Below, piece after piece: positions 46,080-61,536 of a DNA stretch of 64,000 nucleotides; position 1 is the first letter of the stretch; each line of letters starts with the position of its first letter. The translations under genes were made by a program, and so were the position numbers. Source of the stretch: a virus; the IMG/VR virus record IMGVR_UViG_3300042453_004296, positions 6,015 through 70,014 of that record, one strand, 5' to 3'. The notes under the pieces are model-generated. The model did not search any database. It was not told the DNA's origin and saw nothing but the letters and a program-made list of their open reading frames with translations.

Positions 46080-46093
46080 AATAATAAATTTAG

Positions 46094-46167
46094 TGCGCCC
46101 TCCTGGGATCGAACCAGGCACCTACTGATTATGAGTCAGTTGCTCTAACCGAATGAGCTAAGGGCGC
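46094..46167 (-). tRNA. tRNA with CAT anticodon, most likely tRNA-Ile2 (lysidine type)
   Basis: GCGCCCT/AGGGCGC acceptor, D arm GCTCATTCGGTTAGAGC, anticodon arm CTGA-CTCATAA-TCAG, T loop TTCGATC; resembles Ile2 tRNAs; no encoded CCA. Confidence 0.88.
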
Positions 46168-46173
46168 TATTAG

Positions 46174-46271
46174 TACTCAAGGCAGGACTTGCACCTACAC
46201 ACTCTTTCGAGTTAGAAAACCTAGCGTCTACTATCGGATTCCCATGGAAACCTCGCTTCCGCCACTTGAGC
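46174..46271 (-). ncRNA. tRNA-Leu-like RNA with D-loop insertion and truncated anticodon arm
   Basis: Acceptor GCTCAAG/CTTGAGT+A, D arm GCGGAA...TAGACGC, variable arm ACTC-GAAA-GAGT, T arm GTAGG-TGCAAGT-CCTGC. Confidence 0.65.
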
Positions 46272-46275
46272 ATTG

Positions 46276-46350
46276 TTGCGGGGGCAGGACTCGAACCTGC
46301 GTCATTTGGCTTATGAGACCAAGCTGGAACCATCTCCAGTCCACCCCGCC
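46276..46350 (-). tRNA. tRNA-Met(CAT), initiator-like but divergent
   Basis: GGCGGGG/CCCCGCAA acceptor with 1:72 mismatch, anticodon arm TTGGT-CTCATAA-GCCAA, T loop TTCGAGT. Confidence 0.85.
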
Positions 46351-49479: not shown

Positions 49480-49772
49480 AACCTTAATTTTAACTTATAT
49501 ATAAATATACGTATATACCTCGTCGATGCCAAACTTTTTGTTAAAAGAAGAAATTTAATCCTTATGGTTTTTTGTCGAAATGGGTAGTTCGAAATTTGGT
49601 ATCATTTTGTGGGTATATATGTATATACGGGATCGGCCGTAAAGGGTGTGTTCGAGTTGAAGGGTGCTCTAGTGCCGCAGAAGTATCGGATACGCCGTAC
49701 ATGGACAGTAACGCATATGGGAGTATACTGCACGTAGTACGATATATATACGGCACGGGTACGGCACGATCC

Positions 49773-49952
49773 TTACATAACAGGAAGATCGAGCCGTATA
49801 GCCACTAGGTATTGAGAGATCTCATCGTGCGACATGCTCCCTAACAGCTGCGCTAGCGCCAGATCAGCATCGTGATCGAGCTCACCGTATTTAGCAACGT
49901 GGTGTTTACATTGCGCCCGTAACTTAAGGGCGGCATCAATTTTATTTGTCAT
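49773..49952 (-). CDS. Small early protein (59 aa)
   Basis: Not in the track: MTNKIDAALKLRAQCKHHVAKYGELDH...; preceded by AAACAC. Confidence 0.6.
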   Translation of the reverse strand: MTNKIDAALKLRAQCKHHVAKYGELDHDADLALAQLLGSMSHDEISQYLVAIRLDLPVM

Positions 49953-53960: not shown

Positions 53961-53966
53961 TTTTAG

Positions 53967-54052
53967 TAGCCGGGGTGGGAATCGAACCCACACTGCCATT
54001 TCTGGCAACAGGATTTTAAGTCCTGCGTGTCTACCTGTTTCACCACCCGGCC
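53967..54052 (-). tRNA. trnL: tRNA-Leu(TAA)
   Basis: GGCCGGG/CCCGGCT acceptor, anticodon arm CAGGA-CTTAAAA-TCCTG, long variable arm TGCCA-GAAA-TGGCA, T loop TTCGATT. Confidence 0.93.
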
Positions 54053-55187: not shown

Positions 55188-55252
55188 GTGTTTTAATTTT
55201 TTCTAAATGTACGACACGCTTTTTAAATATCCAAATAAGCTGTGATCTATTT

Positions 55253-55522
55253 CTAATCCAACTTAATAATAATAGCCTCAGAAAAAGTCCATCCTACATA
55301 CTCTAATTCATGATTAATGCCTAATTTTTCACAAAATGAGGTTAATTTACTTTTAGTTATACTAACACCATCATAAAATGCATTTACAATTTCAAACTGG
55401 TTTTCACGATAATTCATACGCATCATAGGATACGCATTGAATTTATCATAAATCAATTTTTTAAATTCCTTTACTGTAATATTAGTGTTAGGAATTACTT
55501 TAGAGGTGTGTTTTTGTTCCAT
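55253..55522 (-). CDS. Early hypothetical protein (probably leaderless)
   Basis: 89 aa; ATG 4 nt after the TACATTTA element. Confidence 0.7.
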   Translation of the reverse strand: MEQKHTSKVIPNTNITVKEFKKLIYDKFNAYPMMRMNYRENQFEIVNAFYDGVSITKSKLTSFCEKLGINHELEYVGWTFSEAIIIKLD

Positions 55523-55770
55523 GCTCTAAATGTACGACACATTCTCTGGGTAGCCAAACAGGTTGTTCCTTCTGTTTGCTCCTTCTGCTCCTCCTGAATA
55601 TGTATAATGGAATTTCAATTCGTGAAGACGACACATTCGGCAGGTACGGAAAATCACTGAAGCTAGTAATGAATGGAAATCAATGATCAAGGTGAGCGGA
55701 TAGATAGACTCACACCTACATACCAAAAAAGAACAGGCGCCACGGCGCCCACCATTGTCTTTGGTTTCCC

Positions 55771-55861
55771 AGTCCGCTCCTCCTAGTCCGTTCCTCCTAG
55801 GCTGCTCCTCCTGCTGCTCCCTCTGTCTGATCCTCCTGCGGATCCCAGGCTGTTCCTCCTG
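55771..55861. repeat. Short tandem repeat array (AGGAGG on the minus strand)
   Basis: agtccgctcctcct / agtccgttcctcct / aggctgctcctcct 14-mers; CCTCCT at 55779, 55793, 55807, 55832 and 55855. Confidence 0.8.
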
Positions 55862-55926
55862 CGCGCGCACAGGGTACTGTCCCCGGACCCACATTTGATT
55901 TACTCCACTGCCTCCACACTGTTACA

Positions 55927-55944
55927 CCCCCCCCCCCCCCCCCC
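55927..55944. repeat. C18 homopolymer (G18 on the minus strand)
   Basis: Directly visible; exact length may be unreliable. Confidence 0.7.
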
Positions 55945-56289
55945 ACGCAGTCCTCTCCCCTGGGTCTTGCAACCTGTCCTAAAGGTACGACAAAATTTTT
56001 AAAAAGCCAAATCCTTTTTGATATTCTTTTTGTTCCTTTTGTTAATCTTTTTGCAAGAAAATTTGGGGGCCCCGGGGAGGGGTATTACCCCCGCGCAAAA
56101 ATGCAATAAACCATGCGTATATACTTTGTCGACAAAAGAGAGTGGAGGGGCGGGGCATGGGGGTTAATCCCCTCCCATCCTTATACCACACACCATCTCA
56201 CCCTCATTCCACATACTATTCTAATATATCCCTATCTACATATCTACGTTCCACCCTTAGACTAAGGTGGGTCACACTTGGTGACCCAT

Positions 56290-56384
56290 TTCTAATCCTC
56301 CTACCCGCTCCCTCTGCTACCTCTTTCTAATCCTCCTGTCTGTTCCCTCTACTACATTTCTGTTACCTCTATCCGATCCTCCTA
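56290..56384. repeat. Second short repeat array (AGGAGG/AGAGG on the minus strand)
   Basis: CCTCCT at 56297, 56332 and 56378; (C)CCTCT at 56310, 56320, 56345 and 56366. Confidence 0.75.
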
Positions 56385-56681
56385 CACACCCGTTTCGAAT
56401 GAATAATTTTCATCCGTCGTTGTTGTTGTTGTCGTTACTGGATTATTATTATATTCTCTAATTCCGCTCTTTCCCTCCATATGGAGTTCATAATACCGCT
56501 CACCATCTCTTATAGACCAATCTTGTATTCCATCTATAACATCTCTGTTATAAGCGTTAACTATCATCTCACGTTCTTGTTTCATCAACGTTTCTATGTT
56601 TTGAGACATCCAATAATGAAATTGGGTTTCACTCATTTTATAGTAGTTGTCTTTAATTTGTTGTAGTGGTGTTAGTGTCAT
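56382..56681 (-). CDS. Hypothetical protein (ERE.IV.AY family)
   Basis: Shares QEREMIVNAY..ERYY with 56839..57054. Confidence 0.7.
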   Translation of the reverse strand: MTLTPLQQIKDNYYKMSETQFHYWMSQNIETLMKQEREMIVNAYNRDVIDGIQDWSIRDGERYYELHMEGKSGIREYNNNPVTTTTTTTDENYSFETGV

Positions 56682-56842
56682 TTTTTCCTCCCTATTCTAA
56701 TATGAATGCTAATGAATGTTAAACCTATTGTTAAAACATATTTGTAGTTAACAGCATACTTGGTATCAACAAATGATATTCCTAAGTCAAACCACCATTT
56801 TTTGTAGTCAAGTGTGTTTAGTATTATTTCAAGTTTTATCAT
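56678..56842 (-). CDS. Small hypothetical protein (54 aa)
   Basis: Not in the track: MIKLEIILNTLDYKKWWFDLG...; ATGA overlaps with both neighbours. Confidence 0.6.
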   Translation of the reverse strand: MIKLEIILNTLDYKKWWFDLGISFVDTKYAVNYKYVLTIGLTFISIHIRIGRKK

Positions 56843-58069: not shown

Positions 58070-58726
58070 TTATATTCTTTTAACATGATGATCTTTTGGT
58101 AATGATAATTTATCAATTGGTTGTTTACTCATTATTCTTAATATACTATCTAAATCAATAGGTTCCAAATTATTTCCATCAACACCAACATCAATACTTT
58201 TTCCATTTCCTACTCTTAAATGTTTAGGTAAATGAACGTGTCCGTGAGTGTGTATTACCCCATCATTCATTCCATCCCAAGATGCAATTGGAAAGTGACA
58301 TAATACAAAACTAAACCTATCTACTTGCCCTTTTCCTTTTTGAGATGGGCGTCGTAAATCCAACTTAACATAATGATTTACAGATGAGAATATATCACGA
58401 ATGTTGTCTTTGTTTTTCTCAATATGCCCATCATGATTTCCGAGTACTAAATGTATGTTTTGACATATAATTCTATCTCTAAACTCCTTAATACTCTCAA
58501 AACCACCAAACGACCAATCACCTAAGTGAATTAAAATATCGTCCTGTTTAACATACTTGTTAATATTAGTTATTAAAGTCTCATTCATTTTCTCTAATGA
58601 AGGAAAGTCACGAGTCACACTATCGGCATCAGTCCATCTTGTGGTTGCTCGACATATGTTAGCATGGTTGTAGTGAGTATCACTTGTAAACCATAATCCT
58701 TGATGTGGTTTTAATTCTATTTTCAT
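58070..58726 (-). CDS. Calcineurin-like metallophosphoesterase
   Basis: SDTHY.H, HLGD, GNHD, HFP, HGHVH and DVGVD motifs. Confidence 0.92.
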   Translation of the reverse strand: MKIELKPHQGLWFTSDTHYNHANICRATTRWTDADSVTRDFPSLEKMNETLITNINKYVKQDDILIHLGDWSFGGFESIKEFRDRIICQNIHLVLGNHDGHIEKNKDNIRDIFSSVNHYVKLDLRRPSQKGKGQVDRFSFVLCHFPIASWDGMNDGVIHTHGHVHLPKHLRVGNGKSIDVGVDGNNLEPIDLDSILRIMSKQPIDKLSLPKDHHVKRI

Positions 58727-61285: not shown

Positions 61286-61536
61286 TATTTTAATTCATCT
61301 ATTAAAGCACACATTCTACCAACCACTTCTCTGTGTCGTAATCTGAAATCCATTCTCCATGGGTTATGGTTTATTTCCTCATCCAACACCAAGACCTGTT
61401 TAGAATATGCTCTTAGTTTTTCAAGTATTGTACCTTCTACCTCACCATCAAGTGGATTGGCAGCGGCAACTGATTCTGGTTTAGGTAGTGGTTTTCTACC
61501 TCGTTTCTTTGGTTCTGTAGTGGGTTCTAATTGCAT
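61285..61536 (-). CDS. Hypothetical protein with AT-hook-like KKRGRKP
   Basis: Probable leaderless start MQLEP at 61536, 4 nt after TATCTTTA. Confidence 0.65.
   Translation of the reverse strand: MQLEPTTEPKKRGRKPLPKPESVAAANPLDGEVEGTILEKLRAYSKQVLVLDEEINHNPWRMDFRLRHREVVGRMCALIDELK

Follow-up and report, generated by a model that had tools for sequence, protein, structure and literature searches.

Paired AGGAGG repeat arrays in the early region of a T4-like phage as candidate iterons of a replication origin

Bacteroidia ribosomes are described as concealing the anti-Shine-Dalgarno (anti-SD) sequence, and bS21-free ribosomes as reading SD sequences (PMC7797042, PMC9976891). This raises the question what arrays of the perfect SD hexamer AGGAGG are doing in the early region of a Flavobacterium-type phage. 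The window analysed here is a 64,000-nt stretch (bases 6015-70014 of an IMG/VR virus record that spans 70,014 bp and is rated 44% complete) that encodes a portal protein, a large terminase (TerL) and a baseplate wedge protein. Of the open reading frames (ORFs) of at least 150 aa, all but four are encoded by the minus strand, and each of these four overlaps a longer minus-strand ORF; the three tRNA genes are on the minus strand too. TerL matches T4-type terminases and is 61.7% identical to TerL of the cultured Flavobacterium phage vB_FspM_immuto (hereafter immuto); by its sequence, the phage is a T4-like, Flavobacterium-type (Immutovirus-related) myophage. Near-identical DNA is present in lake-water metagenome runs. 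The arrays occupy a non-coding gap of about 860 nt (55526-56381) between a 99-aa gene (56382-56681) and an 89-aa gene (55253-55522), where the G+C content reaches 58-61% against about 32% nearby. The phage genes themselves had been noted to start without SD sequences from A-rich leaders, and this is borne out: a 4-mer SD core precedes 4 of 71 ORF starts, compared with a background of 9.2%.

Minus-strand AGGAGG is present wherever the original prediction placed it, in nine copies (55590, 55779, 55793, 55807, 55832, 55855, 56297, 56332 and 56378). The window as a whole holds 25 copies, compared with 15.5 ± 4.1 in shuffled sequences, and nine of the 25 fall within about 800 nt (55590-56383, minus strand). 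Tandem Repeats Finder (TRF) recovers the proposed 14-bp tandem unit as a 14-nt period repeated 3.3 times at 55767-55812. The proposed second array on the same strand is likewise found, with about seven units and three AGGAGG at 56290-56384, and TRF assigns it a 35-nt period repeated 1.9 times at 56289-56355. The features of the locus, in the direction of the genes, are as follows.

56290-56384, minus strand: array 2, about seven purine-rich 13-nt units (TAGGAGGAT, TAGAGGTAA, TAGAGGGAA and similar), three AGGAGG
56269-56287, minus strand: palindrome GGGTCAC-CAAGT-GTGACCC, carrying the AAGTGTGAC box
56210-56216, minus strand: core block 1, GTATGTG; five of its seven columns invariant and two variable in 11 aligned modules
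56159-56176 and 56075-56092, unstranded: arms of a GC-rich 18-nt inverted repeat, 83% complementary, bracketing an AT-rich stretch
56117-56132, minus strand: core block 2, TCGACAAAGTATATAC, within this AT-rich stretch of about 66 nt, which also holds the palindrome TTTGTCGACAAA
55980-56011, minus strand: early promoter, TTTGG at -20 and a GTCGTACCTTTA box, from the phage's own 17-copy family
55927-55944, minus strand: G18 tract (C18 on the plus strand) in the leader, strain-specific
55765-55866, minus strand: array 1, five AGGAGG units and one AGAGGGAG unit, spaced 12-14 nt, some 23-25 nt
55722-55753, minus strand: predicted intrinsic terminator, GGTGGGCGCC-GTG-GCGCCTGTT followed by CTTTTTTGG
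55598-55721, minus strand: conserved spacer, part of one travelling cassette together with the terminator and the following promoter
55566-55597, minus strand: mini-array of AGGAGGAGC, AGAAGGAGC and AGAAGGAAC, immediately ahead of the following early promoter (55527-55559, 89-aa gene)

Array 2 begins at the stop codon of the 99-aa gene and has a purine content of 80%. The two arrays are the two most G-rich 200-nt stretches of the window (z -6.5 and -4.9), with array 1 at the top. Eleven units yield the consensus (C/T)AGGAGGA. The arrays are tandem repeats of constant period (12-14 nt), non-coding and clustered at a single locus per genome, as is typical of iterons.

The predicted early promoter in front of array 1 is substantiated as a member of a family. 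The GTCGTAYMTTTA early-promoter box has 18 matches in the window (1.55 expected), 17 of them on the minus (gene) strand. Twelve of these 17 carry TTTG exactly 20 nt upstream, the copy at 55991-55980 and 11 others, and an ATG-ORF of at least 40 aa lies within 4-39 nt of 15 of the 17. The 55991-55980 copy is the only full promoter with TTTG at -20 that lacks both an ATG-ORF of at least 40 aa within 40 nt and an A-rich leader; its leader is G/C-rich and the first ATG-ORF of at least 40 aa is 85 nt away. It is followed by a leader of about 110 nt with the G18 tract, by array 1 and by the terminator. The original prediction of an ORF-less transcript of about 400 nt therefore holds as to the missing ORF but not as to length, since the predicted terminator at 55753-55722 would end the RNA after about 250 nt. 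A 122-aa ORF (55526-55894) overlies array 1 and reads through the terminator, but relatives do not keep this frame open. The "homologues" in databases prove to be gene calls placed on similar DNA; their N-termini shift and they end prematurely. The ORF was therefore rejected as a conserved protein and treated as non-coding.

A chimeric assembly had been named as a possible source of the arrangement. Two metagenome contigs, L058 and L059, are collinear with window positions 56685-55299 at 79-81% identity and show the same order of 99-aa gene, array 2, core, GC hairpins, promoter box, leader, array 1, terminator and spacer. A third record, P0125, reads from the leader into array 1 in-frame, and the joint between promoter and array is thus real. 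At the position of the G18 tract all three have mixed sequence instead; the arrangement is therefore genuine without the homopolymer, and the tract is either strain-specific or of uncertain length. Logan contigs of three lake DNA runs all end at the C18 run with unequal depths on either side, an observation that is evidentially neutral. The elements are unequally conserved between the window and L058. The terminator is 100% and the spacer 94% identical. In array 1, none of 15 differences falls within the 30 hexamer columns (P=0.004), and all five hexamers are kept. Array 2 is 39% identical with none of its three hexamers kept, in contigs that are 81% identical overall. The L058 promoter keeps the GTCGTACCTTTA box, and its -33 element is altered to CTAGG.

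Protein-anchored and pattern searches of IMG/VR yielded 16 contigs with the module; four of 15 pattern matches (L018, L020, L023 and L024) were discarded as unrelated sequence. In the clade nearest to the window (L003, L005, L008, L011, L019, L021 and L026) the module lies between the same genes and has two arrays with a strict 13-nt period. Their unit is GTAGGGGnA, of which 41 copies were compiled in relatives, and AGGAGG occurs in just one or two copies per module. The module layout is kept across the lineage, but the AGGAGG hexamer as the repeated element is limited to the sub-clade of the window. In the nearest clade, array 1 lies upstream of the promoter of a 151-aa gene, and no promoter drives into the array. 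L008 and L029 have a promoter and an AT-hook-like 104-aa gene between core and array 1. This gene was considered as a module component and rejected; it occupies other positions in the window's contig and in G001, a complete relative, and is therefore not tied to the module. The terminator and the 124-nt spacer follow array 1 in the window but the 151-aa gene in relatives, and the spacer is about 83% identical downstream of that gene in L005 and L008. The flanks therefore act as mobile terminator-promoter cassettes.

G001 (160,798 bp, a circular assembly by its 127-nt end overlap, 100% complete) has all genes on one strand and the module in its interior. Ten of its 28 GTAGGRG copies lie within 566 nt, and the arrays are its two most G-rich 200-nt windows (z -7.5 and -7.0). 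The cultured phage immuto shares the layout at 66.3-66.9 kb of its record, with terminator, array A, a centre of about 310 nt, array B, GC hairpin, A-rich stretch and promoter in this order. Its arrays comprise 22 units in total with a period of 11-13 nt (mostly 12), and 9 of the 12 genomic ACCCGTT copies are inside the module. The immuto unit is ACCCGTTT, which makes the sense strand pyrimidine-rich, and the arrays as read contain no AGGAGG. Sense-strand purine content is 75-84% in the arrays of all four sub-types examined in the window's clade. Chi-like arrays, rut sites, G-quadruplex DNA and ops-like sites were set aside because neither the unit nor the strand composition is conserved across the lineage.

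A conserved core lies between the arrays. From one end to the other, the order is array, TGTGAC boxes, core (GTATGTG, about 85 nt, then TTTTRTCGACAAAGTATATAC in the AT-rich stretch), GC hairpins, in some cases a promoter, array and promoter. The blocks GTATGTG and TTTTRTCGAMAAARKATATAC are near-invariant in 11 aligned modules and about 85 nt apart; the second block was the search pattern behind most of these modules, whereas GTATGTG is independent of the pattern. Two or three direct copies of the AAGTGTGAC box take the place of the window's palindrome in relatives. The central region of immuto holds the 10-mer AGTATATACG, one of two copies in 160 kb. The AT-rich stretch of the core would be the candidate unwinding element of an origin; folded as DNA, the core has no exceptional single-strand structure (z +0.20).

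The neighbouring genes were also inspected. Pfam and PHROGs searches of the small flanking proteins gave nothing informative, the sole match being a sub-threshold DUF1779, and there was no DNA-binding or replication signal and no Rep- or ParR-like protein nearby. The 151-aa protein has 220 homologues, all unnamed. Its AF2 model (pLDDT 93.6) suggests a helical hairpin and a generic ferredoxin-like domain, with no Foldseek match at E≤0.001 and VIA Z scores of at most 8.6 to unrelated ferredoxin folds. For the 99-aa protein, an Atlas search returned unnamed viral clusters only. Neither blastn of 55200-56700 nor tblastn of the 151-aa protein matched the phage collection, and Pfam TGT (a stand-in for DpdA) had no match in G000 or G001.

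The module has a constant architecture, is conserved, changes its unit between sub-lineages and is unique in each genome. A layout that stays constant while the unit is replaced is as expected for DNA sites that co-evolve with their binding protein. Our leading reading, which we hold tentatively, is that the arrays are DNA iterons, specific to each lineage, at a nucleoprotein site that occurs once in the early region; this site would most likely be a replication origin activated by transcription. The iteron half of the original prediction fits the paired constant-period arrays around a conserved core; the link to terminase or genome end that came with it is not supported. The units would be double-stranded DNA sites for a phage-encoded, or host, protein co-evolving with them, and early transcription running through the module would help or prime the firing of the origin. 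By analogy, paired arrays, an AT-rich palindromic centre, GC inverted repeats, promoters and single copy suggest the architecture of an origin or a master control site. The promoter at 55980-56011 points into the element, in an order confirmed by L058 and L059, as an R-loop origin would have it. The non-template strand is G/purine-rich in the window's clade, and not so in immuto. Purine-rich RNA favours stable RNA-DNA hybrids; the gene-less promoter may thus yield an R-loop-prone RNA, a proposal confined to the window's clade. The match to the SD hexamer would be a side effect of a G-rich iteron core that differs by a single base from the GTAGGGGA unit found in the nearest clade. Its identity with SD is most likely incidental to a lineage-specific iteron, and an SD-identical unit in an SD-blind host then is a curiosity. 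In all three sequences examined (window, G001 and immuto) GC skew passes the module without inflection, a weak test because all genes lie on one strand.

Promoters close to the repeat units would also suit a different function for the same DNA sites. The units could bind a phage transcription regulator, acting as repressor, activator or insulator of some early promoters, and the module would then be no origin; this is possible, if on balance rather improbable. Units lie directly upstream of the 151-aa promoter in L005, L003 and L008, where they belong to array 1, and the mini-array at 55566-55597 precedes the 89-aa promoter of the window. A single unit sits inside a promoter spacer at 58504 of G001, the L013 array adjoins the start of a divergent gene, and array B of immuto lies about 70 nt ahead of a promoter. 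Moreover, the core sequence TCGACAAAGTATATAC also serves as the spacer of real promoters at other loci. On the other hand, the arrays occupy one locus per genome, compared with 17-33 early promoters, array 2 and immuto array A come after a gene end or a terminator and not a promoter, and no regulator was found. The proximity to promoters also suits the iteron reading, since iterons abut or overlap promoters in iteron replicons.

The RNA reading of the original prediction was that array 1 is transcribed as a sponge, here an sRNA of about 250 nt whose five or six unpaired AGGAGG would titrate bS21-free 30S subunits or a GGA/purine-binding protein. The order of promoter, leader, array and terminator recurs in L058, L059 and P0125, the array-1 unit persists, its hexamers are kept while the differences from L058 fall between them, and the phage genes avoid SD. 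The purine-rich units are mostly unpaired in the predicted RNA, and contigs of one metatranscriptome run lie on 55798-55874 and 55521-55689, with DNA carry-over possible. Like the CsrB/RsmZ sponges, the locus has its own promoter and terminator, many GGA repeats and no ORF. In CsrB/RsmZ, however, the motifs are displayed in hairpin loops, whereas neither MFE nor centroid folds show such a display here, the motif is not conserved among relatives (AGGAGG, GTAGGGG or ACCCGTTT), and there is no Rfam family. At gathering score, Rfam finds only the three tRNAs in the whole window, and the best hit in 55300-56500 at E≤1 is a chance match to MIR408 (18.5 bits vs 64). RNA folds of the promoter-terminator unit (z +0.34), of array 2 with the core (z -0.33) and of the conserved spacer (z +0.31) are unexceptional. 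RNAalifold of 11 cores gives -1.46 kcal/mol, and the lone "stem" is the near-palindromic likeness of the two invariant blocks. These searches and folds thus show neither covariation nor any other sign of constraint on an RNA.

Comparison with relatives weakens the sponge further. Array 2 has lost all its hexamers in L058, the -33 promoter element is changed there, and array 1 lies upstream of the promoter in most relatives. That the layout is kept while unit and strand composition are replaced is hard to square with an RNA that pairs with the invariant anti-SD or is bound by a conserved host protein. Given these comparative data, a sponge role appears unlikely. A narrower version, in which the SD-identical iteron RNA of the window's sub-clade captures bS21-free 30S subunits and disturbs rpsU/bS21 autoregulation during takeover, would be very unlikely. 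The clade-wide purine-rich sense strand and the position of array 1, with its conserved hexamers, in a promoter-terminator unit would fit an RNA role equally well and count against the iteron reading.

It is similarly doubtful that the arrays lack a function of their own and are a minisatellite, evolving fast and neutrally within a hyperplastic early region, that recombination between promoter/terminator cassettes has left behind and reshuffled. The low identity of array 2 between otherwise similar strains would agree with this, as would the variable unit number and gene content, the AT-hook-like gene being inside the module in L008 and L029 and elsewhere in the window and G001. The terminator-spacer-promoter cassette has also shifted relative to the 151-aa gene. 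T4-type phages are described as shuffling genes by promoter/stem-loop (PeSL) cassettes, a role proposed for these elements (PMC2839356, PMC4122927). The window's terminator-spacer-promoter stretch at 55527-55753 likewise recurs at another junction in relatives, but PeSLs have no tandem iteron arrays and the likeness is restricted to the flanks of the module. Against neutrality, the two-array layout persists to immuto although the unit has been replaced altogether; within arrays the unit cores are conserved, as are the hexamers of array 1 between strains. The fast turnover of array 2 possibly reflects weak constraint and counts against the iteron reading.

It is highly improbable that the genome physically ends, or packaging starts, at the module, with repeats that bind terminase or the ends like those next to the terminal repeat of T7. 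In favour, 6 of 16 relatives' contigs stop less than 500 nt from the core, two more stop inside or just beside the module, and all genes share one orientation, as in polar genomes of the T7 type. Against this, the module is internal in circular G001 and in the immuto record, in the middle and not at the start of the early-promoter cluster, and about 50 kb from TerL in the window, and strain-level hypervariability of arrays and leader is a sufficient cause of the breaks. The module accounts in this way for the frequent metagenomic contig breaks at this locus in these phages.

Returning to the reading of the arrays as iterons of a candidate origin, several known systems can be compared. Two repeat sets flank a core, gene or promoter in P1 incC/incA, the P4 ori/crr octamers and R1 parC, the last with its two iteron sets around a promoter. 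Between relatives, the repeats of such iteron replicons and centromere-like sites change in step with the protein that binds them. The module differs from iteron replicons in that no Rep- or ParR-like protein was found nearby and in its shorter units, in a phage that is lytic without signs of partition. Classical plasmid iterons are 17-22 bp long; the units here measure 12-13 bp, which counts against the origin reading. In T4, oriF and oriG are described as a promoter with a DUE whose transcripts form R-loops that prime synthesis, and a review gives the role of the oriE repeats as undefined (PMC3016281). Like oriE, the module combines direct repeats, set at regular intervals of about 12 nt, with an early promoter, in a phage that is likewise T4-like. 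The oriE repeats, however, coincide with a coding repeat of 24-nt period inside gene 5, whereas the arrays are non-coding, form a pair on either side of a conserved core and repeat every 13 nt, a length that whole codons do not fill. The analogy is therefore by layout only, there being no sequence similarity, and the module would be a layout analogue with a putative origin role.

The lactococcal c2-type ori is described as an ORF-less stretch between the first two early promoters, with no ribosome binding site behind the first, that sustains plasmid replication without added phage proteins (PMC7150918). The module shares with this Ceduovirus origin a non-coding stretch bounded by early promoters; the c2-type ori belongs to another phage family and host, lies between divergent early and late modules and has no paired 13-nt arrays. 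Its early transcript is reportedly essential, according to a 2004 paper. None of the papers searched combines Flavobacterium phage, origin of replication and direct repeats, and a wider iteron/myovirus search gave nothing relevant; publications naming immuto concern, by title, DNA modification, polymerases or ecology. As far as comparative sequence analysis goes, the module adds a putative new case to the phage control or origin regions that bear iterons. Should it prove to be an origin or a master site of early control, the Immutovirus-like T4-type phages of freshwater and marine Flavobacteriia would have a first candidate for a cis-acting element of replication or regulation. The cultured pair of immuto and Flavobacterium sp. 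LMO8 has the same layout, which makes the module directly testable. The tiny ORFs annotated across the immuto arrays are doubtful, given the arrays.

The stretch that joins a terminator to the next early promoter is conserved as a block, and the features considered here are listed below.

Features in the window and in relatives of the phage
55527-55753, minus strand, and 4446-4650 of L005, a relative's locus: terminator, 124-nt spacer and next promoter, conserved as a block
49480-49775, minus strand, and 1240-1530 of L038, a relative's locus: second conserved non-coding element, ~290 nt, with CCGTA(C/T)-type repeats
46635, 54419 and 54705, minus strand: three variant copies of the GTCGTAYATTTA box, with AGACGTGCC...GCA at about -22
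46093-46350 and 53966-54052, minus strand: three tRNA genes, two of them tRNA-Met(cat) and the third tRNA-Leu(taa)
61294-61518, minus strand; 3530-3844 of the relative's locus L008; 51298-51582 of the complete relative G001: basic early protein, ~100 aa long, that contains the AT-hook-like motif KRGRPKG
3196-3510 of L013, minus strand: opposite-strand gene near an array in relative G003
1851-1946 and 2312-2434 of L057, the part of the Flavobacterium phage vB_FspM_immuto record that carries its module: gp150 and gp149, ORFs of 31 and 40 aa in the GenBank annotation
110966-111580 of G001 (C1), minus strand: QueC gene (E 1e-40)

The terminator, spacer and promoter are 94-100% identical to those of a sister strain, and in relatives they are placed at another gene junction, as in L005. 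The three parts behave as a single mobile cassette. Among the contigs of one metatranscriptome run, a 169-nt one matches 55521-55689 without a difference.

The second conserved non-coding element has homologous counterparts in the window and in G003. It is terminated by an early promoter whose spacer, TCGAC(G/A)A(G/A)GTATATAC, is the motif of core block 2, the second near-invariant core motif of the non-coding module that bears the AGGAGG arrays.

In the T4-like, ~160-kb genomes of G001 and immuto (NC_055915), one strand bears essentially all genes: plus-strand ORFs amount to 0-0.5 kb per 5-kb bin throughout the G001 record, and long open frames in immuto to 124.8 kb on one strand versus 4.9 kb on the other. 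The opposite-strand gene of G003 starts ~30 nt from the array, which places the array's pyrimidine-rich face directly upstream of that start. The gene for the KRGRPKG protein differs in early-region position among relatives and lies inside the module in L008 and L029. Immuto gp150 and gp149, which overlap or adjoin the phage's two repeat arrays, are probably not genes.

In the DNA of immuto, a 7-deazaguanine derivative takes the place of all G (PMC10516641). Neither QueC nor TGT was found in the window's own contig, which is 44% complete. If its lineage modifies G as immuto does, quadruplexes would be impossible in its G-rich DNA, and modified G would be what any iteron binder reads.

In T4 middle promoters, an activator box substitutes for the -35 element. 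The three variant copies of the GTCGTAYATTTA box resemble these in that they also swap the upstream element, carrying AGACGTGCC...GCA where the remaining copies of the box have TTTGG, and by this analogy they may constitute a second promoter class. The three tRNA genes are interspersed with early genes.
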